Virus record (IMG/VR): IMGVR_UViG_3300040801_001593
Span: 1 to 64,000 of that record
Source: a virus
Strand: one strand, 5' to 3'
DNA length: 64,000 bases
This document shows positions 3,588 through 30,236 of the stretch, one piece after another. How positions within the stretch are numbered: position 1 is the first letter of the stretch; every line of letters begins with the position of its first letter. The notes under the pieces were generated by a model. That model was not told the DNA's origin and did no database searches. It saw nothing but the letters and a program-made list of their open reading frames with translations. The translations under genes were made by a program, and so were the position numbers.

Positions 3588-3631
3588 AAAAGAGGAAAGA
3601 TTTTTAATTCAAACTATTAAAGGAGACTGCT

Positions 3632-4827: not shown

Positions 4828-4989
4828 ATGTCTGTACCAGAAAGATGCTTGTATTGCAACAAGAATGCCTTCACCTATTTCCATACTGATAAAGATGGAA
4901 CTGAACATTATCATTGTAGAAATTGTGGCTTGGATAATTTAAGCCCAAATACTAAACCAAAAGAAAAGGAAGAGAAAGATGCCAATTGA
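4828..4989 (+). CDS. small zinc-ribbon protein (53 aa, below ORF-track cutoff)
   Basis: My own translation is MSVPERCLYCNKNAFTYFHTDKDGTEHYHCRNCGLDNLSPNTKPKEKEEKDAN. It has CxxC...CxxC. The ATG lies 2 nt after the previous stop, and the ORF overlaps the ligase start by 11 nt. Confidence 0.55.
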   Translation: MSVPERCLYCNKNAFTYFHTDKDGTEHYHCRNCGLDNLSPNTKPKEKEEKDAN

Positions 4990-5986
4990 TTGTAACCTAT
5001 GGCCAATGAACATTCTCACTAAGCCAGTAGGAGAGAAAGACAGGAAGCTTATCATCCACCCTAAAGATGCAGTTTTGAGAAGTGGTATGGTAAGAAGTGC
5101 TAATGGGGATATAGAGATTGTAGACCCAAAAGCAGTAAAGATTAAAAGCGGTCTCTATTGCATAGAGAGAAAAGAGCAAGGTCATAGACATTTCCTTGTC
5201 AGAGAGCAGGGTAAACCTCCTGCTGTCTATGGTAGAAGGTTGAATGTTGAAAAGACTTATACCAACATCTACCCTAAATTGGAAAAATCTGTTGTGGCGA
5301 AAATATGGTATATGATGCCTGAGAATACTGTTTTTGACTTTGAGCTATGTTGGCCAGGTCATCCTGATTCAGAAGTAACAACGGCAATCAAAGAATGCCC
5401 TGAAGACCTCCATCCATACATCTTCTCAGTTCCTATCCTTGAAGGTAAACCCATGATGGGTTCTGACTCTATGGGATGGTTTGAAGGTAGAAGATGGTTG
5501 CAAGATTTTGTTGGTAAGGAATATATGACAAAAGGATTCAAACCTATAGAGCTTGGTGCAGATACTAAGGAATCAATAAAAACATTAGAAGCTCTACTCA
5601 ACATAGCAGATGGTAAGGGCTGGGAAGGTTTTGTCCTTAAAGGTATGTTCTGTGATGACTGGTGGAAGCTTAAAGGTATCAATGAAGCTGATGTGTTTGT
5701 TACCGGATTTAAAATCAGTACAGCAGAAACCAGAAAAGGATTGCCAACAGGAGTTAAGATAGCTGTTCTGGATGAAGATGAAAAGGTAGTGGATATGGGT
5801 AATGTTGCTGGGTTTAGTTTAGAGCTTATGAATGACATGAAGAATAATCCAGAGAAGTATCTTAATAAAGTGATGAGAGTTGTATACCAAGAGATTGCCG
5901 GAAAGGGAAAGATGAAGCATGGCTTCTTCAATTGTTGGAGAGATGATAAAAATTGGCAATCCTGTTCTATTAATCAATTCCAATAG
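4979..5986 (+). CDS. ATP-dependent DNA ligase (minimal T7/Chlorella-virus type)
   Basis: Nucleotidyltransferase motifs in the correct order: I ERKEQGHR (KxxGxR), III VFDFELCW, IV WEGFVLKG, V DWWKLKG, VI-like MKHGFFNCWRDDK. Confidence 0.8.
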   Translation: MPIDCNLWPMNILTKPVGEKDRKLIIHPKDAVLRSGMVRSANGDIEIVDPKAVKIKSGLYCIERKEQGHRHFLVREQGKPPAVYGRRLNVEKTYTNIYPKLEKSVVAKIWYMMPENTVFDFELCWPGHPDSEVTTAIKECPEDLHPYIFSVPILEGKPMMGSDSMGWFEGRRWLQDFVGKEYMTKGFKPIELGADTKESIKTLEALLNIADGKGWEGFVLKGMFCDDWWKLKGINEADVFVTGFKISTAETRKGLPTGVKIAVLDEDEKVVDMGNVAGFSLELMNDMKNNPEKYLNKVMRVVYQEIAGKGKMKHGFFNCWRDDKNWQSCSINQFQ

Positions 5987-5994
5987 GAGATGTT

Positions 5995-6618
5995 GTGGAA
6001 AGATGGGAAACTATCAAGAGTAATTGGCAGAATGGTAAGAGCATAGCATCAAAGCCTTGGGAAGAAGCAAACCCAAGGCTTTATAATATGATTAAGATGT
6101 GCAAGGTGCATTATTTATTGTTTCAGGATAATTACCGCCACTGGATAGAGAAGTCTAAACAATCTGGTACTCACATCTGTAGGTGCTGTAGGGGAAATAT
6201 ACCACCTCTTAATTGGCTTGGTAAGATTATGATTCCTCACCAAGCTCCTTTAAAAGATAGAGGGTTGGCTGTTGTTGATTATAAAGCACCTGTTTGCTTG
6301 AAGTGCCTCATTGAGCTTAAGAAAGAGCCTGTTCTTGAAACACCAGTTGGTTCTACTTTGACTGTAAGGAAAGAACTAATTAGAGAGCCAATTCAGAAAT
6401 GTGATATTAATAATAAACTCTTATGGTTTATACAAGAGAATAAAATGGTCAACTTTGAAAGACAAGTTAGAAAGGATTTGAAAAATGAGCTATGCAAACA
6501 TAAGTCACCCAACAAGGTTGACAATAAGCAATCTGACTGTAACAGAGGGGCTAAGAAGCTCAATAAAAAACAGATTGAGAGGATTTCCAAAACTTTGCGC
6601 AAAAGACGTTTTCTATGA
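5995..6618 (+). CDS. hypothetical Cys-rich (zinc-finger-like) protein
   Basis: GTG start 4 nt after AGGAGA. Contains HICRCCRGN ... CLKC. The 3' end overlaps the next gene by 134 nt. Confidence 0.55.
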   Translation: MERWETIKSNWQNGKSIASKPWEEANPRLYNMIKMCKVHYLLFQDNYRHWIEKSKQSGTHICRCCRGNIPPLNWLGKIMIPHQAPLKDRGLAVVDYKAPVCLKCLIELKKEPVLETPVGSTLTVRKELIREPIQKCDINNKLLWFIQENKMVNFERQVRKDLKNELCKHKSPNKVDNKQSDCNRGAKKLNKKQIERISKTLRKRRFL

Positions 6619-7129
6619 GTTGTGTTTTGCCATATGTAGCCCTCAGATAAAGTTTGAAACTAATAAGTATGCAAACTGGAAGCTAAGAGAGTTTGATTTT
6701 TTCTCTAAGGGTTTGACCCTAAACCAGTTGATAGAAATACTTAAAAGCTCAGGTATGAGATTCCACTCTAACAAAGCAAAGCAACTTTTCTTAGCAAGAT
6801 TAGATTTTGCTGAAATATATGACGCGGTAAAGTGTAGCACTTGCTCTGATATCAAAAAGAGAGAATGCTTGGTAAGGAATGTAAAGGGATTAGGGATGAA
6901 GACATCTTCCCACTTTCTAAGGAATATTGGAGATACTGACAACTTAGCAATCATAGATACCCACATAGCCAAGTTTCTGAAATCAGATTTGCCAAAGAAT
7001 AAGAAACAGTATATTGCTATGGAAACAGAGTTTCGTCAATTTGCTGTTAGAAACTTATTGACTGTTAGAGAGTTAGATGCTTTCATATGGGCTTACTATT
7101 CTAATAATGGCTTAGAATACGTAAGGTGA
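6485..7129 (+). CDS. ogg: 8-oxoguanine DNA glycosylase/AP lyase, Ogg2 (archaeal-type HhH-GPD) family
   Basis: FYELCFAICSPQ and VRNVKGLGMKTSSHFLRNIG...AIIDTHI match my recollection of the Ogg2 pattern (FxELxFCILTAN; G-x-G-x-K-x-ASHFLRN-x-G ... AIIDRHI). The catalytic Lys and Asp positions are present. The start is uncertain (6485 or downstream). Confidence 0.75.
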   Translation: MSYANISHPTRLTISNLTVTEGLRSSIKNRLRGFPKLCAKDVFYELCFAICSPQIKFETNKYANWKLREFDFFSKGLTLNQLIEILKSSGMRFHSNKAKQLFLARLDFAEIYDAVKCSTCSDIKKRECLVRNVKGLGMKTSSHFLRNIGDTDNLAIIDTHIAKFLKSDLPKNKKQYIAMETEFRQFAVRNLLTVRELDAFIWAYYSNNGLEYVR

Positions 7130-14078: not shown

Positions 14079-14549
14079 ATGCTAATTAAAAGAAAAGATG
14101 GTACTATTGTTATCAAAGATGATAAATGTAAAACAGTTGCTGAACTATTAAAGAAGTATAAGGGACTTGGCAAGGACTTAAGAGAGGCAGACTTAAGATT
14201 TGCCGACTTAAGTAAAGTTGACTTAACTGGTGCCAACTTAGAAAACGCCTACTTAACTGGAGTTGACTTAAGAGATGCTATCTTATTCAAAGCTAACTTA
14301 AAAAACACTAACTTAAAATACGCCGACTTAGGACAGGCGGACTTAAGAGAGGCTAATTTAGAAGATGCTAATTTAGAATATAGCCACTTAGGGAAAGCTA
14401 ACTTAGAAGATGCCGACTTAAGAGAGGCTAACTTAAAACATACCATCTTATTCAAAGCAGACTTAAGAAAAGCCGACTTAACTGGTGCTAACTTAAGAGA
14501 CACTAACCTATTAGGTGCTAACCTAACTGGCACTAATTTAATATTGTAA
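14079..14549 (+). CDS. pentapeptide-repeat protein, paralogue 1
   Basis: About two dozen A(D/N)LxX pentapeptides follow a 35-aa N-terminal module, MLIKRKDGTIVIKDDKCKTVAELLKKYKGLGKDLR. Confidence 0.85.
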   Translation: MLIKRKDGTIVIKDDKCKTVAELLKKYKGLGKDLREADLRFADLSKVDLTGANLENAYLTGVDLRDAILFKANLKNTNLKYADLGQADLREANLEDANLEYSHLGKANLEDADLREANLKHTILFKADLRKADLTGANLRDTNLLGANLTGTNLIL

Positions 14550-14570
14550 ATAAATTTAAAGGACTTACTA

Positions 14571-15218
14571 ATGGTAATTGAAAGAAATGATGGTACCATC
14601 ATCATTAAAGACGATGACTGTAAAACAGTTGCCGAACTATTAAAGAAGCATAAGGGACTTGGTAAGGATTTAAGATGTGCTAATTTATTCAATGCTAATC
14701 TATTCAATGTCAACTTAAAACATGCTGAATTAAAACAGGCTGACTTAAGGTGTGCTAACTTAAAACACGCTGAATTAAAACTGGCTGACTTAGGACAAGC
14801 TGACTTAAGATGCGCTAACTTAGAACAGGTTTACTTAGAACAGGCTAACTTGTTCAATGCTAACTTAAAACACACTAACTTAAAACAGGCTAACCTATCT
14901 GGTGCTATCTTAAGATATGCCAACTTGAAACACACTAACTTAAAACAGGCTAACCTATCTGGTGCTATCTTAAGATTTGCCAACTTAGAAGATGCTAATT
15001 TATTCAATGTCAACTTAGAACAAGCGGACTTAGAAGATGCCAACTTATTCAATGCCAACTTAACTGGTGCTAACTTAAGAGACACTAATTTATTCAATGC
15101 TAATTTAGAACAAGCGGACTTAGGACAGGCTATCTTAGAACAGGCGGACTTAACCTCTTCTAACTTAAAAGAGGCGGACTTAAGGTATGCCGACTTAACT
15201 GACACCAAGTTAGAGTAA
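14571..15218 (+). CDS. pentapeptide-repeat protein, paralogue 2
   Basis: Same N-terminal module (MVIERNDGTIIIKDDDCKTVAELLKKHKGLGKDLR), followed by about three dozen pentapeptides. Confidence 0.85.
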   Translation: MVIERNDGTIIIKDDDCKTVAELLKKHKGLGKDLRCANLFNANLFNVNLKHAELKQADLRCANLKHAELKLADLGQADLRCANLEQVYLEQANLFNANLKHTNLKQANLSGAILRYANLKHTNLKQANLSGAILRFANLEDANLFNVNLEQADLEDANLFNANLTGANLRDTNLFNANLEQADLGQAILEQADLTSSNLKEADLRYADLTDTKLE

Positions 15219-15479
15219 ACACAAGTAAAATATAAATTACCATTCTACCCTCAAACTGCATTGCCCACTGCCTCCACACCGGAGGTTATTTATAATATTC
15301 CTATAAAGGACTATATAAATAGAATAAAGTCTTTAATACTACTTAATAAAGGAATAAAGAGTATATTCCTTTATAATACCTTATAAGTTATCTAATAAGA
15401 GAAGAAGTAAGTTATATATAGAAAAAGGGTATATCTCCTATACCTATTATAAAATTCAAAAAAAAGAATAAGCTGTGAT

Positions 15480-16340
15480 GCTGATACTGAGAAAAAATGG
15501 GTAGGCATTGTTTTAGTGTTGGTGGGATTGGGTTGTGGTAAGGAATGGTGATTTTGTGCTATGACAATGGGGATGGTATTACATCCCTATCATGGTCAAC
15601 ATTGCCACCTGTTTTAGCCAAGAAAACATTGCTTATTGCCAGTATTAACAATTTTTATTGAGCAACATTGCCATGTGTCTAACCCGTCATGACGCCCATA
15701 AATCCATGATATCCATGACCAAAACTCAATAAGCCAAGTAGCCATTGCCATGTGTCCAACACGTCATGACGCCCATGACCATCTCCCATGATAATCCATG
15801 ATAATCTCCCATGACGCCCATGACCAAGTAGCCATAAAGTACTTGGCTATCCATGATATTTCCCATCTATTTTTAGTCATGACGCCCATGACCAAGTGAC
15901 CAAGTCATATGGCATTGCTGACTGATTATCATGATATTTCCCATCTATTTTTAGTCATGACGCCCATGACTTTCTCCCATGATATACCTGCCAAGTCATA
16001 TGGCAATGCTGACTGATTATCATGATAATTTCCCATGACGCCCATGACCAAAACTCAATCCATGACCATGTCCAAGTAGCCATAAAGCACTTGTCTATCC
16101 ATGACCAAAATTCAACCCAACTCTTGGACAAAATTCAACCCAACTCTTGGACAAAATTCAATGGACAAAATTCAATGGCAAAATTCAATGGCAAAATTCA
16201 ATGGCAAAATTCAACCCAAGTAGCCATCTATCCATGATAATCTCCCATGTCCATTTGTCCATGATATCCATCTACCATGACGCCCATAATAATCCATGAT
16301 AATCAAATGGCAATGTATAGATGCCAACATGTCTATTAAT
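15480..16340 (+). repeat. iteron field (dense same-strand short direct repeats, no credible ORF)
   Basis: Hand count. CCATGA occurs 19 times on the top strand. CATGACGCCCAT occurs 7 times, ATCCATGA 8 times and CCAAGTAGCCAT 4 times. There are also direct repeats of 41, 37 and 33 bp. Confidence 0.9.
16106..16217 (+). repeat. head-to-tail tandem array built on CAAAATTCAA
   Basis: The 23-mer CAAAATTCAACCCAACTCTTGGA occurs twice, then CAAAATTCAATGG(A) four times, then CAAAATTCAACCC. Confidence 0.95.
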
Positions 16341-16369: not shown

Positions 16370-16398
16370 TTGCGAACGATAATATTTTATAGTATATT
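16370..16398 (+). promoter_or_regulatory. sigma70-type promoter (TTGCGA-17-TATATT)
   Basis: The spacer ACGATAATATTTTATAG and the downstream ATAAGAGTAGTTAAGAGA are shared with the three consensus promoters at 17.4-18.1 kb. It lies 55 nt upstream of the ATG at 16453. Confidence 0.55.
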
Positions 16399-16452: not shown

Positions 16453-16710
16453 ATGTCTAAAAGAAACTATACTTCTACTCCGGAGAGAAAAGCCCATTTC
16501 TTAGAAGTAGAGGAAATGCTACAAACCATGAAAGATACCTACGCTGACCATAAGGAAGCGTTCTCTACCATGCCCATTAGAAAGATAGAGAAATTGGTCA
16601 CTAAGCTTAAGAAGTTCTTGATGACTGGTAATGGTAGTAAAGAGGATAGAGAAGCTTTGGGCATTCTTAGAGGAGAGATTCAAAGAAGAGCGTCTTGGGG
16701 ACTACTTTAA
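16453..16710 (+). CDS. hypothetical protein (85 aa) embedded in iteron field
   Basis: AAAGGAG RBS. Helical, charged sequence. Confidence 0.65.
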   Translation: MSKRNYTSTPERKAHFLEVEEMLQTMKDTYADHKEAFSTMPIRKIEKLVTKLKKFLMTGNGSKEDREALGILRGEIQRRASWGLL

Positions 16711-16801: not shown

Positions 16802-17137
16802 ATGGATAAGATTGTTTCTGGAGGTAATTATAAGTTTTTGACTAAAAAACTAAATGCTGTTTTTGGTCCAACAGAAGTGATGACCAATTCCATCAAGTCT
16901 GTATTTAAAGAGGACTGGGAAGTTGGTCTATTGGTAGAAGTAGATGGTAATGGTGTTAAAGACCTTATGGATAAGTATGCTTGTGTTCATTTCTTTGAGC
17001 ATGATAGCTTGGTTACTTCCTGTAACCTTGATGATGGCAAGTTTATTCTTAATAAGAATGATGATATGCTGTCCATCTCCTATCCTGCCATGGGCATCAC
17101 TTGGTACATTATCCCTATTAGACTGTTAGAAAACTAA
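16802..17137 (+). CDS. hypothetical protein (111 aa)
   Basis: CAGGAGAG RBS. A strong terminator follows. Confidence 0.65.
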   Translation: MDKIVSGGNYKFLTKKLNAVFGPTEVMTNSIKSVFKEDWEVGLLVEVDGNGVKDLMDKYACVHFFEHDSLVTSCNLDDGKFILNKNDDMLSISYPAMGITWYIIPIRLLEN

Positions 17138-17159
17138 TTGTCCTTTATTAAGTGGAATT

Positions 17160-17194
17160 GGGAAGCTGTTATGGCTTCCCATTCTTTTTATTTG
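17160..17194 (+). terminator. rho-independent terminator
   Basis: GGGAAGC-TGTTATG-GCTTCCC followed by ATTCTTTTTATTT. Confidence 0.7.
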
Positions 17195-17410
17195 TTTAGA
17201 CATATAGCATTGCCGTATGCTGACCATTGTTACCTGTACCTATAGATTGATATCTGTTATATGTGAATATACCATGATATCCCCCATAATATACAGGATT
17301 TACAAATGGACAAGAACAAGGCTATAAATTAGGTTTATAAAAAGTAAAGCTATTAATAAGAGGTAAATTCTAAAAAGTAAAGAGAAAAAATATTTTAAAA
17401 AATAAAGAAA

Positions 17411-17443
17411 ATCGTTGACAACGATTAAAAAATATAGTATAAT
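17411..17443 (+). promoter_or_regulatory. consensus sigma70 promoter 1 with palindromic -35 operator
   Basis: TTGACA (17415-17420), exact 17-nt spacer, TATAAT (17438-17443). The -35 box is centred in the perfect palindrome ATCGTTGACAACGAT (17411-17425). An A/T-rich tract lies upstream. Confidence 0.8.
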
Positions 17444-17484
17444 ATAAGAGTAGTTAAGAGATTAATTTAATAGGAGGGGTAAAG

Positions 17485-17637
17485 ATGGAAACGAATTATT
17501 TTTTTAATAGAGAAGAAAGAAAAGAAATAGAGAGAGAAAGGGCTTTTTCTATATCCGGTATTATAGAGTATAAAGACTATTACCTTATACCTATTAATAC
17601 CCTTAATAAGGAAGAAAAAAATATTTTAAAAAAATAA
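17485..17637 (+). CDS. small hypothetical protein, cassette 1 (50 aa, below ORF-track cutoff)
   Basis: TAGGAGGGG RBS. My own translation is METNYFFNREERKEIERERAFSISGIIEYKDYYLIPINTLNKEEKNILKK. It ends just before promoter 2. Confidence 0.5.
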   Translation: METNYFFNREERKEIERERAFSISGIIEYKDYYLIPINTLNKEEKNILKK

Positions 17638-17642
17638 AAATA

Positions 17643-17675
17643 ATCGTTGACAACGATTAAAAAATATAGTATAAT
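17643..17675 (+). promoter_or_regulatory. consensus sigma70 promoter 2 with palindromic -35 operator
   Basis: ATCGTTGACAACGAT (17643-17657), TTGACA at 17647-17652, 17-nt spacer, TATAAT at 17670-17675. Confidence 0.8.
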
Positions 17676-17715
17676 AAGAGTAGTTAAGAGACTAAAAGAA
17701 ATAGAAGGGGTAAAG

Positions 17716-18078
17716 ATGAAAACGAAAGATATTTTAAAAGTAGTAAGAGAAGAAGGCCTTAAACTCTCTAATAGAGAGTTTAAGGACGTATTAGAGACTT
17801 TAAGTATAAATACGGTACTATCTATAGATTACTCTTATATAGGAGATATCGCCTATATAGATAGTAGTAGCGATTCTTACCCGAACGAAGATTTTTTATC
17901 CGAGGAAAATCTAAAAGAGTTAGAAGAACTATATACCTTATCGGTAGTAGTAGTAGTAGAAGATAGAGAGGTAATCCTTTATAAAGTAAGTAAAGATAAT
18001 TTCCTCCTATATATAGAGGGAACGGATAGAGCCGAAGAATCCCTAATCTTTTTTAAAATAATCGTTGACAACGATTAA
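17716..18078 (+). CDS. hypothetical acidic protein, cassette 2 (120 aa)
   Basis: ATG at 17716 follows GAAGGGG. The track start at 17647 is the TTG of the -35 box itself. The 3' end (..IIVDND-stop) reads through promoter 3. Confidence 0.65.
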   Translation: MKTKDILKVVREEGLKLSNREFKDVLETLSINTVLSIDYSYIGDIAYIDSSSDSYPNEDFLSEENLKELEELYTLSVVVVVEDREVILYKVSKDNFLLYIEGTDRAEESLIFFKIIVDND

Positions 18079-18093
18079 AAAATATAGTATAAT
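18061..18093 (+). promoter_or_regulatory. consensus sigma70 promoter 3 with palindromic -35 operator
   Basis: ATCGTTGACAACGAT (18061-18075), TTGACA at 18065-18070, 17-nt spacer, TATAAT at 18088-18093. Confidence 0.8.
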
Positions 18094-18151
18094 ATAAGAG
18101 TAAGGTTAATAAAGACCTTACTTAATTCTAAACTTAATAAAAGGAGTTTCT

Positions 18152-18568
18152 ATGGAAACGAAAGCTACTAAAAAAGTTACTAAGAGAGAAGATTATAAGG
18201 GCGAAATCGCTCTTAAAAGAGCGAGAGTTAGCGGGATAGCGCTAAAAGCGAGTACTGCCCGTTCCGGAGGTATCTACGAAGTAAAGAGTAATAATAACGG
18301 TACGAGTACCGTTCTAAACGGAATATTTAAAGCTTACTTTCCGAAAAAAAAGGAGGTAAACGCCTCTCTATTCGGGGAGGTCTTAACCTCTCTCTTTACC
18401 GGTAAAGAGAAGGAGAAGGACGCTATAGTAGAAAAAGGAATATCTGGCTACGAGAAGACTACCGGAAGGAAGTATAAAAACTTCCCTACCCTTAGATCTC
18501 GCCTAATTTCCGAAATTAAGCGAGGGAATATATTATCGTTTAAGCTAATAAGCGAACCGGTACGCTAA
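18152..18568 (+). CDS. hypothetical basic protein, cassette 3 (138 aa), CpG-rich coding sequence
   Basis: AAAGGAG RBS. Heavy use of NCG codons, unlike the rest of the window. Confidence 0.7.
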   Translation: METKATKKVTKREDYKGEIALKRARVSGIALKASTARSGGIYEVKSNNNGTSTVLNGIFKAYFPKKKEVNASLFGEVLTSLFTGKEKEKDAIVEKGISGYEKTTGRKYKNFPTLRSRLISEIKRGNILSFKLISEPVR

Positions 18569-18576
18569 TTAATTTT

Positions 18577-18612
18577 ATCCCCCCTTCTTTAAAAAAGGAA
18601 GGGGAGGGGGGA
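18577..18612. terminator. bidirectional terminator candidate between convergent genes
   Basis: ATCCCCCCTTC...GGAAGGGGAGGGGGGAT forms an imperfect hairpin flanked by A/T runs on both sides. Confidence 0.5.
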
Positions 18613-18712
18613 TTTAAAATTTAGAAAACTTTTTCTTACCGCCCAATATAGCATCCCACACAAGCTCCGGAAATTTTTTATCAAAAAACTCATAATCCCA
18701 ATACTAAAACTT

Positions 18713-19126
18713 TTAATCGTTAGCAGTATCCAAATCCTTGAACCATAAACTGTAAACACTCACTTGTCTAATATCACCATCTGCACTCCTAATCATGGCA
18801 TACTGAGAATTATCACAGAACTCAATAAATTGCGCTTCAATAACTGCATCTTTAGGACTATCACATCTTACTTTGCACGCTTTCCCAAATAGCATGGGTA
18901 CTGAGTCTAATTTTAATTGCAGCCTGTTGATTTTGTTGTGAAGTTTATCAATCTCAGAAATAAGATGGGACATCTGGCTTTCTAATGGCTTATTGAACAA
19001 GAGAGGTTGCCCATCTTCTATTGACCCTGCTTCAGCTTTATGAACTTCGTCACATCCTGTATCCGGTAATATATTTTTAGGCTCCTCTACTTTTTTACCA
19101 TCAGAGCAAAACTTGACTTTTCTCAC
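18713..19126 (-). CDS. hypothetical protein
   Basis: GTG start 6 nt after AAAGGA, overlapping the upstream stop (GTGA). 137 aa. Confidence 0.65.
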   Translation of the reverse strand: MRKVKFCSDGKKVEEPKNILPDTGCDEVHKAEAGSIEDGQPLLFNKPLESQMSHLISEIDKLHNKINRLQLKLDSVPMLFGKACKVRCDSPKDAVIEAQFIEFCDNSQYAMIRSADGDIRQVSVYSLWFKDLDTAND

Positions 19127-19370: not shown

Positions 19371-19676
19371 CTAAATGCTGTTTAAGATTCTATAAGTATG
19401 AGAAATGCTAACATTAAAGGCTTTAGATATGTCTGCAACCTTTGTGCCATTATTGCTCATGTCAAGCATCTTTCTATTGCGGTCTGGATTATTTGCTCTG
19501 GAGCTTAGAACTTTTAACTGCTTCCTTCTTAAATTAATGGCTTGGCGAGTTACACCATATTGGTCAGCAATTCCTTGGTCTGTTTTAAAAACTTTGACCA
19601 AGTCCATCATCTCTTCTCTGCCAATGTTTGCTACTGCACCTCTGTTTCTTGGTTTTTTAATTTCCACTTGTTTCAT
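19371..19676 (-). CDS. helix-turn-helix DNA-binding protein
   Basis: Two HTH-like segments: GIADQYGVTRQAINLRRKQL and TKVADISKAFNVSISHTYRIL. 101 aa. Confidence 0.55.
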   Translation of the reverse strand: MKQVEIKKPRNRGAVANIGREEMMDLVKVFKTDQGIADQYGVTRQAINLRRKQLKVLSSRANNPDRNRKMLDMSNNGTKVADISKAFNVSISHTYRILNSI

Positions 19677-19894
19677 TTCTTATCCTTTCTAATTTTTCCA
19701 GTACCTTTACAAATAGGGCACTTATGATACTTCTCGGTACTTTGGTAATAGTGCTTGCCAACACCATCACAGAAACTGCATTGACCAAAATTATCATCTC
19801 TCTTTTTAAGTAGAATAATAGTGACTGCTAAAAAGAGAGCAAATGCATTTATAGAGATACATATTATAGTGGTGCATATTATAGTATTATTCAT
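19673..19894 (-). CDS. membrane-anchored protein with DnaJ-type zinc finger
   Basis: N-terminal transmembrane helix, then CSFCDGVGKHY...CPICKGTGKI, which is two CxxCxGxG motifs. Confidence 0.6.
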   Translation of the reverse strand: MNNTIICTTIICISINAFALFLAVTIILLKKRDDNFGQCSFCDGVGKHYYQSTEKYHKCPICKGTGKIRKDKK

Positions 19895-20422: not shown

Positions 20423-20956
20423 TTAGCGCCTGAACCTTCTATTGAGCCTTCTTCTATTGATGCCATAATTTTTAGAAGGTGGAGGAGGTGCTGTTTTACT
20501 TATGGACTGTATGTTCTCAGGAACAGCATGCTCAATAACAGGCTCCTTACTTTTGAAATCTATATTAGCTATATATAAGGTAAAAGTTACACAGCCAACA
20601 TATGTTGAGAACTCAGCAACAGAACCTTGACCAAAAATTTCTACAACCTTACTTTTAATCAATTCAATATAATCAGCATTATAATAAATGCTATTAGGAG
20701 AGCAACCTAAGAACTTTCTATCAGCATTGTTATGAAAATCTCTATGATAATGATTCAAGTAAGGGTCATCAGAGCAATCAAGAATCAACCTACATCTTAT
20801 AGTTACAAGGGCATCCATACCTTCAGAGAATTCAACCTTTTCAAAATTAACCCTTATATACTTAGTGCGGATAGCTAATTTAAAATCAGCCATCCGCTTT
20901 TTTAAGTCTTTTCTTGATTTAATTAAGTCTGCTTCTTTATCAAAATTAAATCCCAT
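20423..20956 (-). CDS. hypothetical protein with Arg-rich C-terminus
   Basis: AAGGA RBS. 177 aa. Last gene of the leftward operon. Confidence 0.65.
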   Translation of the reverse strand: MGFNFDKEADLIKSRKDLKKRMADFKLAIRTKYIRVNFEKVEFSEGMDALVTIRCRLILDCSDDPYLNHYHRDFHNNADRKFLGCSPNSIYYNADYIELIKSKVVEIFGQGSVAEFSTYVGCVTFTLYIANIDFKSKEPVIEHAVPENIQSISKTAPPPPSKNYGINRRRLNRRFRR

Positions 20957-20959
20957 TTA

Positions 20960-21346
20960 TCATTCCTTAACTTTTTTAAGCCGGACTCCTCTTCTGGACT
21001 GAGCAAATTGCCGAGTCTTCAAAGCTTGTTTGCACTTTTTGCAACCAACAGGAGGTTTGGCTTTATTCTCTTCTTCTGATTCTTCCTCAGTTTCTTCAAC
21101 ACCAAGTTCACCACTTTCTGATTCAGAGTATCTTGGTGAAAAAGATGAACCTCCATCTCCAATATTAGGATACTCATCACTTCCACTTACATCAAATGCA
21201 GAAGGAACTTCATTAGAAATCTGAGGTACTTCTTTTTCTACATGTGTAGAGACTTTATCTCTTTCTTGCCTTCTGACAATATGAGCTTTGCGCTCTTTAT
21301 CCCTGAAAGCTTGAACCTGCTTTTGTGTTCTTTGATTCTTACCCAT
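20960..21346 (-). CDS. hypothetical basic-acidic-basic protein
   Basis: 128 aa. Starts 1 nt after the patatin stop. Confidence 0.6.
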   Translation of the reverse strand: MGKNQRTQKQVQAFRDKERKAHIVRRQERDKVSTHVEKEVPQISNEVPSAFDVSGSDEYPNIGDGGSSFSPRYSESESGELGVEETEEESEEENKAKPPVGCKKCKQALKTRQFAQSRRGVRLKKVKE

Positions 21347-21347
21347 A

Positions 21348-22295
21348 TTAGAAACCTTCCTTTAAAAGTTTAATCATATCAGGATTTACCTTTGTCACTA
21401 ATTTTTCTCCATAATCCAAGTATTCCTTAATGTGTTTAACACCATCAAGCTTGTCAAGCTTATTAGGTAGCTCAACATTAAGTCTAAATACCCTTACATT
21501 AGGATTCATTTGGTCTACATAATAGCCAGATAGCACTTGGTCTTGGGTAGCTTCTGCTCTTGCTTGACCTAAGTAAGACCCAATCTGTCTAATAGTTCTC
21601 ATTTTTCTGGCTTTGGAAATAGGGTTGTATTGATTAACATCTCCACAACCAATAGAGACAATTACTACCTTTTCATCTTTCCATTTTGCCAGAACCTCCA
21701 TAAGACTATTTTCAAGAGTACAACTATTAATACCTTGACCACCATCTTGGAACACTGCTCCTACCTTTTGACCAATACTGCCAGAAGGAGAAAAGTTCTT
21801 CCATCTGAAATTAGGTACAACCATCTTTCCAAAATATAGAACTGCACTCAATGCAGACCAAGCAATAACATCAATCAGTTTTTCACCACCATCTTTAACG
21901 TCATAACTTTTCAAGAAGTGAGTTCTCATAGAACAAAGGTTGAAAGTAGTAAGAATCATATTAGTCTTGGCATCTCTATACCTAAAGTCTTTAGGTATAT
22001 AGTCCTCCATAGTTTCAAGAAACTTATCCCTATCATACTTAACACCATGTCTAAGAAAATAGAAAGGGTTGAACTTGAATAATTTAGGAAGATGTTCAAG
22101 GTATAGCTCTTGAATATAAGCTGCACTTATACCATAACCAAGACAACCTCCAATTATAGCACCAGTAGAAGTTCCTGAGATGAGGTCAAATGTTTCATGA
22201 CTTTTCTCTCCAAGAGTTTCTTCTATGTACCTTAATACAGTTGCAGGGATTACTCCCTTACATCCGCCACCATCAATTTGAAGAATTTTTTTCAT
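21348..22295 (-). CDS. patatin-like phospholipase
   Basis: DGGGCKGV (oxyanion hole GGxKG), GTSTG (GxSxG nucleophile) and FQDGGQG (catalytic Asp, DGG) occur in canonical order. Confidence 0.85.
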   Translation of the reverse strand: MKKILQIDGGGCKGVIPATVLRYIEETLGEKSHETFDLISGTSTGAIIGGCLGYGISAAYIQELYLEHLPKLFKFNPFYFLRHGVKYDRDKFLETMEDYIPKDFRYRDAKTNMILTTFNLCSMRTHFLKSYDVKDGGEKLIDVIAWSALSAVLYFGKMVVPNFRWKNFSPSGSIGQKVGAVFQDGGQGINSCTLENSLMEVLAKWKDEKVVIVSIGCGDVNQYNPISKARKMRTIRQIGSYLGQARAEATQDQVLSGYYVDQMNPNVRVFRLNVELPNKLDKLDGVKHIKEYLDYGEKLVTKVNPDMIKLLKEGF

Positions 22296-22984
22296 TTGTT
22301 TAATCCCGCTTGGAATTTAAAGATATTGCTGGAGATTTTACAAAGCTCCATATCAATCAAATTTACATAAATAGGGTCTTTCTTATAGACTTCCCACCTT
22401 TTGAATAAATCCATTTGGTGAGCATCTTTCTTAAACCTTTTACCATCAAATGAGCTTCCTCCACCTCTTTCAGATAAGACCTTAACACCTTTGTGATAAG
22501 TATCTAAACAAAGTAGAGAAGCCACTGAACCCCTATAATCCTCAGAAGTAACCCAATCATTATACTTGATAGCAAGTACATTAGGGTTAACATTCTCAAA
22601 GAGCTTGGCTTGTTTTTTATAAAGCTCAATTCTTTTATTAATCCTTTTGAACATACCACCCCCACACTTCATAGAAGAAGCTATCCAGTTGAATGGGTCT
22701 CTAAGGACTACTGCCATATGAACCTCATCATAATCATTCCATATAGTAAGTTTCCTAACTTTCCCAACATTATCCACATTAAAGTCTTCCATGTTATAAA
22801 TGTGAACATCAGCCTTTCCATTGCCAAACTTGACTGGTTTAGTTTTATGGGCTGGTATAAAATCAGAACCATGTACCTTATAATCATTAAAGTGGATAGC
22901 AGGCTCTGAATTATATCCTATCCAATGTACTATGGCATGATGTCCACTTCTTTTCATACCAAAGATAATATATGCTTTTTTCAT
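22292..22984 (-). CDS. sulfotransferase-fold (P-loop) protein
   Basis: ATG at 22984 (MKKAYIIFGMKRSGHH). GMKRSGHH resembles the 5'-PSB loop and VLRDPFNWIASS resembles the RDP-x5-S 3'-PB motif of sulfotransferases. Overlaps the patatin start by 4 nt. Confidence 0.5.
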   Translation of the reverse strand: MKKAYIIFGMKRSGHHAIVHWIGYNSEPAIHFNDYKVHGSDFIPAHKTKPVKFGNGKADVHIYNMEDFNVDNVGKVRKLTIWNDYDEVHMAVVLRDPFNWIASSMKCGGGMFKRINKRIELYKKQAKLFENVNPNVLAIKYNDWVTSEDYRGSVASLLCLDTYHKGVKVLSERGGGSSFDGKRFKKDAHQMDLFKRWEVYKKDPIYVNLIDMELCKISSNIFKFQAGLNK

Positions 22985-22988
22985 TAGT

Positions 22989-23633
22989 TTACCTACCTTG
23001 AATATTGAACACAGATAAGGTATGCTTTTCATTGTGTACTATATGGCTTTTACAATTGCCATTAGTATGGATACCTGCTTCTGATAATAGAGTCATATAG
23101 TCTAAAGTAGACCTTGAAATAACATGAGGCTTTTTATCTCCTGCATCCTTCTCATAGAAACACAGTCTCTTAAGCCCAAGTAGATTATCTTTAAAACTTT
23201 TCAGTATCTTGATAACAAGCTCATCATCACAATGCTGTAGAACAGTAGTTGTCAAAACTTGCTCAATGTCAAATTTATACCTGATATTAAAAGTTTCAAC
23301 CTCTGTAAGATAAGGGTGGCTAAGGTGAACAAATCTTTTACCTTTGTTTCTTTTTCTTGCCAACTTAATAAGTTCTTTTGTCATATCAGCACCAACATAC
23401 TTAGAGAACTGCTGAGCATACCTACCTATACCGCAACCATAGTCAAGAGTTGGTAGGTAGGTATCTAAGTTTTTGAAAATGAAATTTGTTCTGATGTTGT
23501 AATTAATATCCTGTTCTTCAATAGCCCTACAATCAAACCCAACAGCACTCTCTTGGTGGGTCTTTGCTCTATCCTCCCAATAGGATTTGGCTTGGTCTTC
23601 ATTTAGCATCCTTAACAGCCTTTCTACCGCCAT
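22989..23633 (-). CDS. class I SAM-dependent methyltransferase
   Basis: Motif I LDYGCGIGRY, followed by acidic post-I and motif II-like segments. 214 aa. The start could instead be the internal MLNEDQ. Confidence 0.7.
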   Translation of the reverse strand: MAVERLLRMLNEDQAKSYWEDRAKTHQESAVGFDCRAIEEQDINYNIRTNFIFKNLDTYLPTLDYGCGIGRYAQQFSKYVGADMTKELIKLARKRNKGKRFVHLSHPYLTEVETFNIRYKFDIEQVLTTTVLQHCDDELVIKILKSFKDNLLGLKRLCFYEKDAGDKKPHVISRSTLDYMTLLSEAGIHTNGNCKSHIVHNEKHTLSVFNIQGR

Positions 23634-23943
23634 GGTTATAATTATGGTTGTATGCTTTTATTAAAGGGGCACAATTTTTACAAGTGCCATTCTTCTCAGT
23701 AGCTTCTTCCTTACCACAATGCCAACACATACCTGACTCTCTCAGAGAGAAGTTTCTAAATTTCATAGAGAGTTGTGCATTAGTAAAGTCTTCAAATATC
23801 CCATGTTTATCAACTTCTCTGAACTTAGCCCAATCAACACTAACTTTCTCAGCTTTCTTAGTTAGGTTCATGAAAAGTTTTTTGACACTTTCTTTTCTGA
23901 AAGTAACATCAACCTTTTTACCTTTAACCATTTTAATTGGCAT
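23599..23943 (-). CDS. hypothetical zinc-ribbon protein
   Basis: ATG at 23943 follows GGAAGGAG. CWHCG...CKNC. Confidence 0.55.
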   Translation of the reverse strand: MPIKMVKGKKVDVTFRKESVKKLFMNLTKKAEKVSVDWAKFREVDKHGIFEDFTNAQLSMKFRNFSLRESGMCWHCGKEEATEKNGTCKNCAPLIKAYNHNYNHGGRKAVKDAK

Positions 23944-24154
23944 CTTTAACTCCTTCCATAGCTGCAACTGCAGCATCTAATCTTCTTACAGTGACATCAG
24001 CTGAATCTACAGTAGTATCATTTACCCAAATTGCAAACCCAGTAAGTTTAGGGCTTTTAGGGCTTACATAGAACCGCCCTTGATTGGAAACATTAATACT
24101 CTCTAACCCTACATTAGCATGCTCACCTTTAAAAACTTCACCAACATCTATCAC
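23933..24154 (-). CDS. hypothetical protein (73 aa)
   Basis: GTG start 6 nt after AAAGGAG. Confidence 0.5.
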   Translation of the reverse strand: MIDVGEVFKGEHANVGLESINVSNQGRFYVSPKSPKLTGFAIWVNDTTVDSADVTVRRLDAAVAAMEGVKDAN

Positions 24155-24194
24155 AAATAGCTCCTTTAGTTATTATTTTAAGTTTCTAATAACT

Positions 24195-24223
24195 AATATA
24201 ATAAAATTTTTAATCGTTCGCTT
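24195..24223 (-). promoter_or_regulatory. weak member of the ACGATTAAA promoter family (leftward)
   Basis: The minus strand reads AAGCGA-ACGATTAAAAATTTTAT-TATATT, the same register as the promoter at 16370. Confidence 0.35.
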
Positions 24224-25184
24224 AATAAATCTTTAACAATGGTGAATTATAGAGGGATGGAGTCTCATACACCCTGCAAAGTTTATTCCAACCATCTCTA
24301 TTAGGTTCCACAACTGTAGAGTATTCATATTCTAAGTCCTCTACAAGTCTAACTACCTTCCAGTTAAGAATCATAAGCTTAATATAATCAAAAAGCTTTT
24401 TGACATCTTTGTGGTCTTCACCTCTACGCTTAATCATTAGCCTTAAAAAACCTTCAGGTGTTCCATCACAATCAAGGTAGCAATCTAAGTTCTTCTTGAA
24501 CTGGAAGCGATAGACAGACTTGACATTATCTCCTGAATCACCTCTAATAACTTTGTGCAACATTACCTTACTTTTGTCAGTAGTATCAAAATGCTTCTCT
24601 ACAACTTCATCAGTAGGAGGATTGCCATCTCCAAGTATGATAGTTAGATTTGGATATCTGGGAATCAGTTGCCACATATCCTTATCAGTTGAGAATAGAA
24701 ATATTTTACTATTCTGGTTTTTCTTGATGTAAGAAGCTATTACATCATCTGCTTCTTCTCCATCATGCCAAATAGAAGTGTGAGGAATATGTGCCATAAA
24801 ATCTTTGCAGATTTGCATAGGGTCATACCCAAGGTCTTCTTTCTCTCGGTTCCCTTTGTAGCGAATCCGTTCTTTTTCATTTTCTCCATCCCAACTCTTA
24901 TCAGGGGAGTGACTTGCAAGAGCTTCTTGATTATCTTCATAGAGTTTTCTTTTGCGAGTAGGAGACCTATCCTCACAAATGATAAGTTCAGGTATACTTC
25001 CACTCTCTGAGCAAAGGTTGATAGCCCTCTGCAACATCTTACATAGACCAAGTATACATCCTACATTAATCCCATCAGTGTTAATAGTTCCTTCATCCAT
25101 AGTTGCAAATAAACTTCTGTATACAGCATTAGAGAAATCTATCACAACTTTGGTACTGGTTATTTCTTTCATTCTTCTTTTCAC
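24222..25184 (-). CDS. 5'-3' exonuclease / flap endonuclease (Pol I 5'-nuclease, T5 D15-like)
   Basis: VVIDFSNAVYRSLFA, YKGNREK, EEADDVIASY, STDKDMWQL and VIRGDSGDNV match the conserved blocks of the 5'-nuclease family. GTG at 25184 lies 9 nt after AAGGAGGG; ATG at 25172 is an alternative start. Confidence 0.85.
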   Translation of the reverse strand: MKRRMKEITSTKVVIDFSNAVYRSLFATMDEGTINTDGINVGCILGLCKMLQRAINLCSESGSIPELIICEDRSPTRKRKLYEDNQEALASHSPDKSWDGENEKERIRYKGNREKEDLGYDPMQICKDFMAHIPHTSIWHDGEEADDVIASYIKKNQNSKIFLFSTDKDMWQLIPRYPNLTIILGDGNPPTDEVVEKHFDTTDKSKVMLHKVIRGDSGDNVKSVYRFQFKKNLDCYLDCDGTPEGFLRLMIKRRGEDHKDVKKLFDYIKLMILNWKVVRLVEDLEYEYSTVVEPNRDGWNKLCRVYETPSLYNSPLLKIY

Positions 25185-25522
25185 AGGTATCTTCCCTCCT
25201 TCGGGTTTAATATAATAAATTTTTAACTTGCTAAAAAGCTTTTTATTAAAATAAATTAAACAAAATAGAACAAACACTAATTATTCTGTTGTAAAAGTTT
25301 TATATTATTACTCAAAGTAGGGATAATTTTAACGGTGGGAAATACGGTTCCTATATAAAAAAATTTAATCGTACCCCCCCCTCTTAGTAGCGGTCAATGG
25401 CATTTAGTCTTAAAAGGTGGCTTATATAATAAATATATATTTATATAATAAATATATATATAATATAGGGCAGGTTGGAAGGGTAAACGGCAGAAGCCGT
25501 TCATCAATGAAAAAGGGATGGC

Positions 25523-28526: not shown

Positions 28527-30236
28527 ATGCTCGGTACTTCAAAAATGGTATTAGGGAAATCTGCAAGTGTAAAAGGTATCCCAAGAAATAATATTTTATC
28601 AGGTTCTTATAATGGAGCCTATGGTGTGGATAATGCAGTAACTGATACAAGTGATATGGAAGTAACTAGAACTTTTATGACTGACGCTTATAGAGTATCA
28701 GAATGGATTAGGGCAATTGTTGATAGAGCTACAGAGAGAGTTGCAAAGGTAGAAGTATTCCCAAGACCTTTAGGAGCCAAGATTGGAACTAAGGATGGTG
28801 AATTAAACACTAAGACTCGCAAAGATATGGAAAATGTGATGAAGCTTCTCATGAAGCCAAACACTGATGGGGAAAGCTTTTCTTCTTTAAGAACAAAAGT
28901 GTATAGAGATATTTTGGTATATGATGAAGCAGGTATACAGATTGTTAATAATAGCAGATACTCTCAAACTAAAGAGAACCTTTCTCTATTTGCTAATGTG
29001 TCTGGTGAAGAGATTTTTGTAAACCCTAAGAGTAATGGAACATTACCTAAAACTAGAGCTTACTTGCAACTTAGAAATGGTCAAACTGAAATTGCAGCTT
29101 GGGGTAAGAATGACTTTATGAATTTTATCAGGAATGTGAGAGCAGGTTATTCAAATGGCTTCTCTCCTATTGAATCTTGTGTCACTTCTATTATGGGTGA
29201 CTTTGAGGCTATGAACTGGAATCTGAAATTTTTTGAAAACAATGCAAGACCTGATTTTGCATTCATATTTGAGAACTTAGGGTTTGGTAAGAGTGAGAAA
29301 GCTCTAGCAAAAGCAAAAGCTTGGTATGAGCAAAAGCACAAAGGCAATCCTCACTTGCCATTATTTATGGGTTCTGAGAAAGGTCAGGTAAAGCTTCAAG
29401 AGCTTAGAACTTCTCAGAAGGATATGGGATTCTTTGATTGGCAGACTATGCTACTTGCAAGGATGATGGCAGTATATGGTATGCAGTCTGTTGTATTAGG
29501 GGTTAATGGAACAGGAGATGCTATTGGTAAAATAGAAGCAGAGGTTCAAGGTTCAGAGTTCAAAAAGAACACCCTTATCCCTCTTGTGAAGATGTTCACC
29601 AATGTAATGAATTCAGGATTGGTTTGGAATGATTCTAATCTAAACTATGATGATATATATCTTACTTCTGAGAATCTTGATATTGATGATGAAAAGAAAC
29701 AAGCAGAAATTGATGAAGCTTATTTAGATAGAGGTGTAATAACTATTAATCAAGTTAGAAATAGATTACAAATGCCTCCTGTTGAATGGGGTTATATGCC
29801 ATTTGTACCTTTGAATTATGCCCCTTATGATACACTGGTTAAATACCAGCAATCTAAAATAGAGTCTAATATCAAAAGGGCTATGAGTGATGGTATTGAC
29901 AATAATGTGAATACACCAGAAGGTAATGAAGAAGCTAATAAAGAGATTTATGATGGAGGTATTGACCAAGCAGATATGACAGGACTTTATACTGCTCTTT
30001 ATGAATCTTCAAAAGACCCAAGTGAAGTTTATAGACATTCCGAGGTTATGAAAGAAGGCAAATTACTTACAGGTCTTGAAAAAGTTGAGCCTTCTATTGT
30101 TAAAGAAGTTATCAATAATATGATGAAGGAAAGAGAAACTAAGAACCATACTCCTATGAGCTATGGAGATGTTTCTCAAGGGAAGCTTTTTAGCACAGTA
30201 GATAGATTTGGTTTAAAATGGGGTAATATACTGTGA
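28527..30236 (+). CDS. portal protein
   Basis: 569 aa. Lies between the terminase and the protease/scaffold/capsid genes. This is an assignment by size and synteny. Confidence 0.7.
   Translation: MLGTSKMVLGKSASVKGIPRNNILSGSYNGAYGVDNAVTDTSDMEVTRTFMTDAYRVSEWIRAIVDRATERVAKVEVFPRPLGAKIGTKDGELNTKTRKDMENVMKLLMKPNTDGESFSSLRTKVYRDILVYDEAGIQIVNNSRYSQTKENLSLFANVSGEEIFVNPKSNGTLPKTRAYLQLRNGQTEIAAWGKNDFMNFIRNVRAGYSNGFSPIESCVTSIMGDFEAMNWNLKFFENNARPDFAFIFENLGFGKSEKALAKAKAWYEQKHKGNPHLPLFMGSEKGQVKLQELRTSQKDMGFFDWQTMLLARMMAVYGMQSVVLGVNGTGDAIGKIEAEVQGSEFKKNTLIPLVKMFTNVMNSGLVWNDSNLNYDDIYLTSENLDIDDEKKQAEIDEAYLDRGVITINQVRNRLQMPPVEWGYMPFVPLNYAPYDTLVKYQQSKIESNIKRAMSDGIDNNVNTPEGNEEANKEIYDGGIDQADMTGLYTALYESSKDPSEVYRHSEVMKEGKLLTGLEKVEPSIVKEVINNMMKERETKNHTPMSYGDVSQGKLFSTVDRFGLKWGNIL

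Follow-up and report, generated by a model that had tools for sequence, protein, structure and literature searches.

The 64,000-nt stretch of DNA analysed here (the window), which comprises positions 1-64,000 of IMG/VR record IMGVR_UViG_3300040801_001593 read on one strand from 5′ to 3′, belongs to a tailed phage and codes for a portal protein (28527-30236), a major-head-like protein (32700-33698), an ATP-dependent ligase and a 5′-3′ exonuclease. At the meeting point of a plus-strand gene block and a convergent minus-strand block extending from 25277 to 18713, it carries an array of three small genes, or cassettes, each headed by a copy of the same promoter, and the entire array is embedded in a CpG-rich island from which the dinucleotide step CA:TG is almost completely missing (Table 1). 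This exclusion of CA and TG, which recurs in related phages, is the main subject of the present analysis. The phage is distant from all deposited phages: megablast against the deposited-phage collection returned no match to the region, and neither DNA nor protein searches of that collection with cassette 3 yielded a near or distant match. Contigs from four other JGI samples are identical to the window over the array and both of its borders.

Table 1. Features of the promoter array and its surroundings (positions in the window).
Feature	Position	Strand	Remarks
CA/TG-free, CpG-rich island with the whole array	17318..18643	.	11 CA/TG in 1326 nt; CpG observed/expected 1.55
Fourth, degenerate promoter copy	16370..16398	+	TTGCGA-17-TATATT, same TAAGAGTAGTTAAGAGA leader; outside the island
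A/T-rich upstream leader	17343..17410	+	two AAAAGTAAAG repeats, UP-element-like tracts; CA/TG-free
Promoter 1	17411..17443	+	palindrome ATCGTTGACAACGAT; -35 at 17415-17420; 17-nt spacer; -10 at 17438-17443
Cassette 1 open reading frame	17485..17637	+	50 aa (METN...); AGGAGGGG precedes
Promoter 2	17643..17675	+	same 35-nt core
Cassette 2 open reading frame	17716..18078	+	120 aa, acidic, pI 4.28, net charge -14; stop codon in promoter 3
Promoter 3	18061..18093	+	same 35-nt core
Cassette 3 leader	18094..18151	+	5′ 10-bp hairpin, AAGGAG ribosome-binding site; fold -14.8 kcal/mol, z-score -3.2
Cassette 3 open reading frame	18152..18568	+	138 aa, basic, pI 10.1; conserved core gene of such islands
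G+C-rich hairpin terminator closing the array	18577..18613	+	fold energy -24.3 kcal/mol

The three promoters share an identical 35-nt core, AATCGTTGACAACGATTAAAAAATATAGTATAATA, made up of the palindrome ATCGTTGACAACGAT (exact at 17411, 17643 and 18061, with 0.04 matches expected even if up to two mismatches are allowed) and a perfect TTGACA-17-TATAAT arrangement (starting at 17415, 17647 and 18065) with the same spacer, ACGATTAAAAAATATAG. The palindrome consists of 7-bp arms about a central unpaired A, and its reverse complement therefore differs at the centre base. An earlier note, made from the letters of the sequence alone, had pointed to these positions, to the perfect promoter hexamers and shared spacer, and to a similarity extending through the ribosome-binding site into the first codons, and all of this is borne out by exact matching and alignment: over a wider repeat of 65 nt, copy 1 shares 89% identity with copy 2 and 71% with copy 3, and an agreement of 72% is found across the leader, ribosome-binding site and first codons. 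Since the 35-nt core was duplicated whole, the three palindromes represent a single evolutionary event rather than three independent ones. The sigma70-type consensus is matched at 12 of 12 positions, with a 17-bp spacer, three times over; an 18-kb promoter scan returned these three sites alone at 12 out of 12, and nowhere else in the 64 kb is there a site within three mismatches of the promoter 29-mer. The fourth, degenerate copy heads a separate unit with two open reading frames (ORFs; 16453-16710 and 16802-17137), which closes at a terminator of its own (17159-17181). Further intergenic positions of the window (3566, 10413 and 12600) carry the core ATAGTATAWT too, which therefore represents the general -10 region of this phage.

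The three cassette ORFs are mutually unrelated in BLASTP comparisons, and the first two end next to or within the following promoter, the stop codon of ORF 1 being located 10 nt ahead of the -35 box of promoter 2 and ORF 2 ending inside promoter 3; on both counts, as well as on the acidity of the cassette 2 product, the earlier note was correct. All three start with ATG-RAA-ACG, and ATG-(A/G)AA-ACG-A (M-K/E-T) opens unrelated ORFs across all islands described below, including ORFs not preceded by a promoter, and is therefore more than a scar of duplication. Cassette 1 is weakly similar to a 51-aa ORF, and cassette 2 is 25% identical over its full length to a 111-aa ORF, of a related contig, L006. 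The cassette 3 protein has a disordered Lys-rich N-terminus and a confident alpha/beta model with a predicted local distance difference test score (pLDDT) of 80, for which a fold search against PDB and BFVD gave nothing below E = 0.3; the AlphaFold model of cassette 2 is unusable (pLDDT 45). Neither Pfam nor PHROGs assigns any of the three proteins to a family, a PDB sequence search with them gave no match, no Rfam family was found, and nothing new came from looking up the adjacent 137-aa ORF or from searching for homologues of an 85-aa ORF. Codon usage of the cassettes correlates with that of the backbone (the window minus 17318-18643) at r = 0.46, in comparison with 0.85 for neighbouring genes. 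Going by their position and architecture, the cassettes may have a role in host takeover or anti-defence.

What the earlier note had missed is the composition of the block as a whole. Its CA and TG count should be compared with about 166 expected at backbone density, or 136 from the base composition of the island itself, and of the eleven leftovers, six are accounted for by the TG and CA of the TTGACA boxes and three by the TG of the ATG starts, the last two being TGs at codon junctions. Among all 300-nt windows of the 64 kb none approaches this degree of depletion, and neither does any other gene. The backbone, in turn, is extremely poor in CpG (observed/expected 0.13; the whole window has 313 CG versus 2018 expected), the opposite of the island. 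Within the cassettes NCA and NTG codons are unused, with an excess of GTA, CTA and ATA, and none of the 308 residues is Cys, His, Gln, Trp or internal Met, which amount to 9.9% of residues in the backbone. Codon junctions are equally affected (C|A, 0-1 observed versus 21-29 expected; T|G, 3 versus 30-43), and the exclusion reaches non-coding DNA, including the terminator region and the 98 nt that precede the first -35 box. The dinucleotide TC is not depleted, GGAGG, which resembles a Shine-Dalgarno site, is enriched four-fold, and the restriction-type sequences CCGG, GCGC, ACGT and GATATC are present. The indices used to detect repeat-induced point mutation (RIP), for which the thresholds are (CA+TG)/(AC+GT) below 1.03 and TA/AT above 0.89, take values of 0.10 and 1.6.

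As CA and TG survive almost exclusively in the -35 boxes and ATG starts of an otherwise purged block, these signals are marked out as being under purifying selection (relatives, too, retain the TTG in TTGCGA), and their retention is the best available sign that the -35 hexamers and start codons function. It also speaks for the sigma70-type reading of the promoters offered in the earlier note, and we regard all three predicted promoters as functional with good, if not full, confidence.

Homologues of cassette 3 were found on short contigs from other samples, namely L006 and L008 (both 57% identity), L013 (52%), L015 (40%), L014 (36%) and L016, and among proteins (P0002, P0004-P0006, plus 63 representatives); in all of these contigs the cassette 3 homologue and its surroundings are CA/TG-free. 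Six islands could be read as DNA, that of the window and those of five further lineages. The island of L006 (1503-3102) has no CA and ten TG, six of which are ATG starts or TTGCGA boxes; in L013 (1-589) the ATG start is the sole CA/TG; L014 has the ATG and one CA; L015 has eight CA/TG in total; and the 1130 nt of L016 (1043-2173) contain two ATG starts and one CTG. Without L016, the other five islands together have 32 CA/TG versus 538 expected, and 18 of the 32 are starts or -35 boxes. The exclusion extends 98-170 nt upstream of the first promoter in the islands, L016 included. It is unchanged between 32 and 57% G+C content (GC), at which codon choice is wholly different, and between the window and L006 synonymous sites are saturated (proportion of synonymous differences, pS, 0.75) at a ratio of nonsynonymous to synonymous divergence (dN/dS) of about 0.1; therefore, the genes are real and the constraint has been active throughout a long divergence. 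The right junction, composed of the hairpin, CCAATAT and the convergent gene, is common to the window, L013 and L015 (the latter two with the same GGGGAGGGGGG hairpin followed by CCAATAT), and normal CA/TG density is resumed immediately beyond it.

Promoters and gene order vary between islands. The promoter equivalents of relatives consist of TTGCGA, a 17-nt spacer and TATATT or TATCTT, TTGCGA being the nearest approach to TTGACA that does not contain CA, and in L006 TAAAGTAAA repeats occupy the position of the A/T-rich leader. The genes of L006 begin with a 105-aa ORF absent from the window, followed by the distant cassette 2 homologue, a promoter running into a leaderless cassette 1 homologue, and a cassette 3 homologue lacking a promoter of its own. 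The suggestion that cassettes are gained, lost or swapped is thus supported, with order and content differing and promoters preceding only some of the genes.

A profile search of 1.84 billion representative proteins retrieved 63 members of the cassette 3 family, while a search of viral and genome contigs with the same profile gave no match. Of 64 sequences, 39 contain none of the five forbidden residues, nine contain one or two, and 16 are ordinary. With about 10% of residues expected to be forbidden, the chance of finding none in 140 aa is about 5e-7, and the protein composition implies the CA/TG-free state for 39 of the 64 representatives. A rough tree distributes the ordinary members over three or four clades, and one such member, L017, has the same synteny and normal CA/TG; it follows that the CA/TG-free state is widespread, probably ancestral, and has been lost several times. 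The more distant phage relatives L010, L011 and L012 have no island within the flanks that were fetched.

One-sided versions of the exclusion occur in genes next to the islands. On the sense strand of L016 397-797 there are one CA and 34 TG; L016 2-346 has one TG and nine CA, eight of them in CAA context and four as Gln codons; and a 118-aa ORF of L006 (494-850) combines a CA observed/expected ratio of 0.47 with normal TG. Hence the constraints on CA and on TG are separable and can be strand-specific. The window has a second CA/TG-free stretch, at 15277-15457, which with its 180 nt is the longest outside the island. It is located just after the terminator of the pentapeptide-repeat genes, is A/T-rich with no convincing ORF, contains CCTTATAAG and TACTACTTAATAAAGGA motifs resembling the island leaders, and may be a remnant island.

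Scanning viral contigs for the promoter pattern gave no match, and a metagenome scan returned one true relative (L008) plus two probable chance matches, L007 and L009. The latter, an unrelated A/T-rich contig (OGJF01000014.1, 115 kb, 26% GC), has two tandem consensus promoters at 3539-3700, each followed by AAATACATAAGGTTGA, one of which matches that of the window at 28 of 29 positions (TTGACAACGATAAAAAAATATAGTATAAT); this probably represents convergence on the consensus rather than homology. A partial copy on the minus strand of the window at 18701-18721 (AACGATTAAAAGTTTTAGTAT, 18 of 21 positions matching the spacer and -10 box) was considered and set aside as likely chance or a relic: it is located in the 3′ end of ORF 18713-19126, without a -35 box, and its conservation does not extend to L013. 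Four intergenic plus-strand sites (3566, 10413, 12600 and about 13198) form a promoter-like family, TTTTATAGTATATTTATAATAGAAAGTAAATATACTATAAA, with the ATAGTATAWT core and no good -35 box; its members have a 13-nt inverted repeat, TATAGTATATTTA / TAAATATACTATA, across the -10 box and leader, and ATGGYTAAT about 40 nt upstream.

The earlier note took the 15-bp palindrome around the -35 box as a sign that a dimeric repressor binds there and blocks the three promoters; anti-CRISPR-associated (Aca) proteins act in this manner at anti-CRISPR promoters. Strong early promoters are often shut off by helix-turn-helix (HTH) repressors binding to inverted repeats (PMC9410906, PMC13551039), the dyad is 7+7 bp long and present in three copies, and an HTH protein gene (19371-19676) is located 1.3 kb away. 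However, the three copies are one 35-nt duplicate and lend no independent support, and this gene is on the opposite strand, in another, convergent operon; no HTH or other family match was found among the three cassette ORFs, so the unit itself has no regulator. The palindrome has no further copy in the window, and the dyad is missing from related promoters: the L006 equivalent (CTTGCGAACGAAG) and the fourth copy in the window (CTATTGCGAACGAT) retain only the right half, AACGA, with no left arm, and the L016 promoters have no TTG at all. It should also be considered that TTGACAA is already a 3+3 palindrome, and that about five further positions complete the 15-mer (about 1 in 1000 per promoter). 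In read-through RNA the palindrome would form only a weak hairpin of -5.6 kcal/mol. The operator model is therefore improbable, and the dyad is very likely incidental: it would be a lineage-specific by-product of an upgrade from TTGCGA to TTGACA beside the conserved AACGA. A role for recurrent AACGA as a protein-binding half-site (seven in the island versus three elsewhere) was likewise rejected, as its recurrence is explained by the CpG contrast and by duplication of promoter and start modules.

The arrangement could be accounted for as follows. The three repeats would be tandem duplicates of one strong promoter module, composed of an A/T-rich upstream tract, sigma70-type -35 and -10 boxes, a leader, a Shine-Dalgarno site and the ATG-RAA-ACG start, and would give rise to nested transcripts of three small genes sharing one terminator. 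The block would act as a moron-like or host-takeover-like module, read by host RNA polymerase presumably right after DNA entry. Long-lasting purifying selection would keep the DNA of this module, including its non-coding flanks, free of the CA:TG step, sparing only those signals that require CA or TG, i.e. the start codons and the -35 box; CpG would persist because its decay yields the forbidden TG and CA. We consider the exclusion itself probably due to selection, and the agent behind it most likely to act at the DNA level, while the account as a whole, that of an immediate-early module read by host polymerase and held CA:TG-free by selection, is offered tentatively and falls slightly short of an even chance.

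The most concrete candidate for the agent would be TG-directed thymine hypermodification of the phage's own DNA. Phages SH-Ab 15599 and PhiW-14 carry hypermodified thymines at nearly every TG of both strands, and M6 and ViI at TG and TC (PMC13458397, PMC6449724), and in the literature searched this was the only documented phage process with such TG specificity. The resemblance is that the process is phage-encoded, directed to TG on both strands of the duplex and independent of host and GC; the differences are that no TG-free or unmodified island has been reported in those phages, and that TC, which some of them target as well, shows no depletion in the island. Under such a scheme no DNA in the virion but the island would be free of modification, and the island could serve as template and promoter for the first transcription by host polymerase. 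This would explain the independence of host and GC, the loss of the state in some clades, and the L016 genes lacking CA on the sense strand only: as CA on the sense strand is TG on the template strand, genes of the L016 397-797 type would have a clean template.

Several observations count against it. No genes for 5-hydroxymethyldeoxyuridine (5-hmdU) kinase, aGPT-Pplase or dUMP hydroxymethylase were found in the 64-kb window or in the fragments of L010-L012, about 26 kb of the 89.7-kb contig, including replication genes, being outside this scope. The TTGACA box itself has TG on both strands and would be modified. Host polymerase also transcribes hypermodified phages such as T4 and SPO1, which are not known to carry islands of this kind. 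Avoidance can be strand-specific, with L016 397-797 avoiding only CA on the sense strand, and L015 and L016 2-346 keeping CAA and avoiding TG, so that the rule is not the one predicted from a purely duplex-level agent. Finally, the CpG-rich island would be exposed at CG-containing restriction sites that are missing from the backbone. Overall, hypermodification is a possible agent, to which we attach a low probability of about one in four.

The island could instead escape, or be invulnerable to, a factor active early in infection and directed at CA or TG in either DNA or RNA, such as a host nuclease or sensor (e.g. an Argonaute with 5′-CA guides), a toxin of the MazF (ACA) type, or an effector encoded by the island that spares its own genes. 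Such an agent would fit the confinement of the exclusion to the presumed earliest-expressed genes and the constant presence in the islands of the basic cassette 3 protein, and the L016 397-797 region, with CA lost from the sense strand only, is in line with action on RNA or on a single strand. The guides of TtAgo mostly begin with dC-dA (PMC4390867), and ACA-less mRNAs escape MazF (PMC9102682, PMC5408214). On the other hand, no nuclease or sensor is known with a plain CA/TG dinucleotide specificity, the remaining genome is full of CA and TG and would still be exposed, the exclusion extends upstream of the first promoter, and the same constraint from 32 to 57% GC argues for an agent carried by the phage rather than one varying with the host. 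This explanation appears unlikely.

A further alternative is exclusion of start codons in all six frames: each TG belongs to an NTG triplet, a CA marks such a triplet on the opposite strand, and initiation would be limited to the three ATGs, with none on antisense RNA. The surviving TGs are indeed real ATG starts, and none of the 14 non-essential leftovers (five islands, excluding L016) is ATG or CAT, which make up 31% of the expectation; they comprise six CTG, five TTG and three GTG. The four-fold enrichment of GGAGG would be harmless only where no start codon follows. Nevertheless, CTG/CAG is about 10-fold depleted, with no CAG observed against about 40 expected, and GTG leftovers are as frequent as CTG. 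Normal genes, moreover, tolerate hundreds of internal NTG, and there is no evident benefit for the antisense strand or for non-transcribed DNA, which leaves start-codon exclusion a doubtful cause.

Mutation rather than selection would be responsible if a CpA-directed cytosine deaminase, similar to fungal RIP or transcription-coupled AID, had converted CA/TG to TA in the most transcribed DNA, with only lethal changes being prevented. The RIP indices are extreme, the product codons GTA, CTA and ATA are enriched, and the borders match a transcription unit. Leftover TGs are at NNT|GNN junctions or in Cys codons, where G-to-A is non-synonymous, yet a synonymous T-to-C is possible at the junctions; the leftover CAs of L016 are mostly CAA, where C-to-T gives a stop, but those of L015 are mostly at NNC|ANN junctions, where it is silent. 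Contrary to a C-to-T drive, the islands of L013 and L014 have 55-57% GC, above the L013 backbone. Highly expressed late genes are unaffected, and the island genes, with the low dN/dS given above, are not decaying. We know of no CpA-specific deaminase in bacteria or phages, and consider hypermutation quite improbable. Simple recent horizontal transfer from a CpG-rich donor was rejected, as it accounts neither for the lack of CA/TG nor for the maintenance of this lack while divergence became saturated. An assembly chimera or sequencing artefact joining foreign DNA to the phage, which the abrupt change of composition at both borders might suggest, has a negligible probability in view of the four other samples with identical borders, the relatives from ENA, JGI and Logan showing the same island beside the conserved CCAATAT junction, and the leader and -10 core common to the island and the backbone promoter at 16370.

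Comparison with known systems shows several partial likenesses. The earlier note had likened the array to the A1-A3 early promoters of T7, and the architecture does resemble that of T7, as well as the T5 pre-early and SPO1 takeover regions, in having clustered near-consensus promoters of host type, small genes of unknown family in one direction, and a terminator; the promoters of the present array differ in being exact duplicates carrying the leader and first codons along. To our knowledge, a CA/TG-free block has not been described for T7, T5 or SPO1. Similar to morons, the array is an independent promoter-gene-terminator unit inserted between backbone genes and bounded by terminators (17159-17181 and 18577-18613), with distinct composition and variable content, but it differs from them in the three-promoter array, in that the phage looks lytic, and in that the contrast is a maintained dinucleotide exclusion rather than a donor-genome signature. 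Anti-CRISPR operons repressed by Aca proteins also combine a very strong early promoter, a dyad over core elements and small variable cargo (PMC9410906, PMC13551039); here, there is no aca-like HTH gene in the operon, and the dyad is not conserved in relatives. The array is not integron-like, as no integrase was found in the window and the repeats are promoters rather than attC sites.

With respect to composition, avoidance of restriction sites and the mRNAs that escape MazF provide a parallel for a short sequence depleted on both strands and kept so over long divergence. Known cases involve motifs of 3-6 nt in whole genomes or in single engineered genes, as opposed to a dinucleotide step in one module of 1.1-1.6 kb at the price of five amino acids, and restriction-site avoidance is recognised by genome-wide loss of 4-6-bp sites, whereas the loss observed here is local and at the dinucleotide level. 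Fungal RIP likewise removes CA/TG and enriches TA, and the island would qualify by its indices, but RIP lowers GC and destroys genes, whereas here there is purifying selection and some islands are GC-rich. Vertebrate CpG islands are CpG-rich promoter regions in a CpG-depleted genome, but keep normal CA/TG. The open-access literature yielded no report of a CA/TG-free region in phages, although this is absence of evidence and not proof of novelty.

Several features of the surrounding genome deserve mention. The portal protein is closest to that of Thermus phage phiYS40, at only 23% identity, and the nearest portal matches are from Thermus phages; high growth temperature has been linked to CpG depletion in bacteria (PMC11282364). 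Backbone CpG observed/expected is higher in relatives, about 0.9 in L006, 0.42 in L011 and 0.56 in L010. Between 15480 and 16330, 1-2 kb upstream of the array, there is an 850-nt non-coding region dense in direct repeats (CCATGACGCCCATGACC; CATTGCCATGTGTC...CGTCATGA; 78-nt units), with four tandem copies of CAAAATTCAATGG at 16152-16214; contig L001 differs from the window in this region by an indel of repeat copies. It may act as an origin, in packaging or in regulation. Related motifs (CATTGCC, ATGATAT and CAAAAYTCAAT) are also found just upstream of the islands of L006 (240-420 and 1375-1425) and L016 (854-1042).

On the plus strand, a helix-hairpin-helix DNA glycosylase of the 8-oxoguanine type (6485-7129; Pfam Ogg-HhH, E = 4e-33) is encoded near a RadC-like JAB protein (2418-2888) and the ATP-dependent ligase (4979-5986), a repair set unusual for a phage that may be relevant to base modification or deamination. 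Two neighbouring pentapeptide-repeat proteins of 156 and 215 aa (14079-15218, plus strand) have a common N-terminal domain, M..R.DGTI.IKDD.CKTVAELLKK.KGLGKDLR; proteins of this type are known as DNA mimics, and the pair may be involved in anti-defence or gyrase protection. The convergent minus-strand operon (20423-25277) includes a patatin-like phospholipase (21348-22295) and an S-adenosylmethionine-dependent methyltransferase (22989-23633), and a Cys4 zinc-ribbon protein (19673-19894) and the HTH protein, of the HTH_7 family, are also among the convergent genes. The fetched fragments of L011 and L012 contain several methyltransferases and glycosyltransferases and one sulfotransferase. Finally, the gene for a 2122-aa tape measure protein (45215-51583) adjoins that for a 2442-aa protein, the two occupying 45215-58908 on the plus strand, which implies an exceptionally long tail or a large tail-tip complex.

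Taken by itself, the promoter array would represent an ordinary, if neat, set of phage early promoters; the CA/TG-free island, conserved across dozens of lineages, is highly unusual and, in statistical terms, beyond doubt. If the exclusion is selected, this points to a dinucleotide-specific agent in the conflict between phage and host that has so far not been looked for. We see an even chance that these islands represent a widespread class of dinucleotide-free phage early modules, which would thereby escape some process marking or attacking either the host or the remainder of the phage genome. TG-directed hypermodification and a CA/TG-directed immune factor are both conceivable in this role, and the basic cassette 3 protein, for whose fold PDB and BFVD offer no match, may take part in the mechanism as well. 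Should such a class exist, it would add a new principle, a local stealth of the sequence so stringent that the encoded proteins forgo five amino acids, and should thymine hypermodification be involved, it would show how phages of this kind keep a template readable by host polymerase. The purge acts as a natural mutagenesis screen, flagging those CA and TG that are functional, in -35 boxes and start codons, and demonstrates that 15 amino acids suffice for folded, conserved proteins. CA/TG-free segments, or proteins devoid of Cys, His, Gln, Trp and internal Met, also offer a computational handle on immediate-early and anti-defence modules in uncultivated phages, and the presence of 39 free and 16 normal lineages within one family makes the cause of the exclusion testable by comparative genomics.

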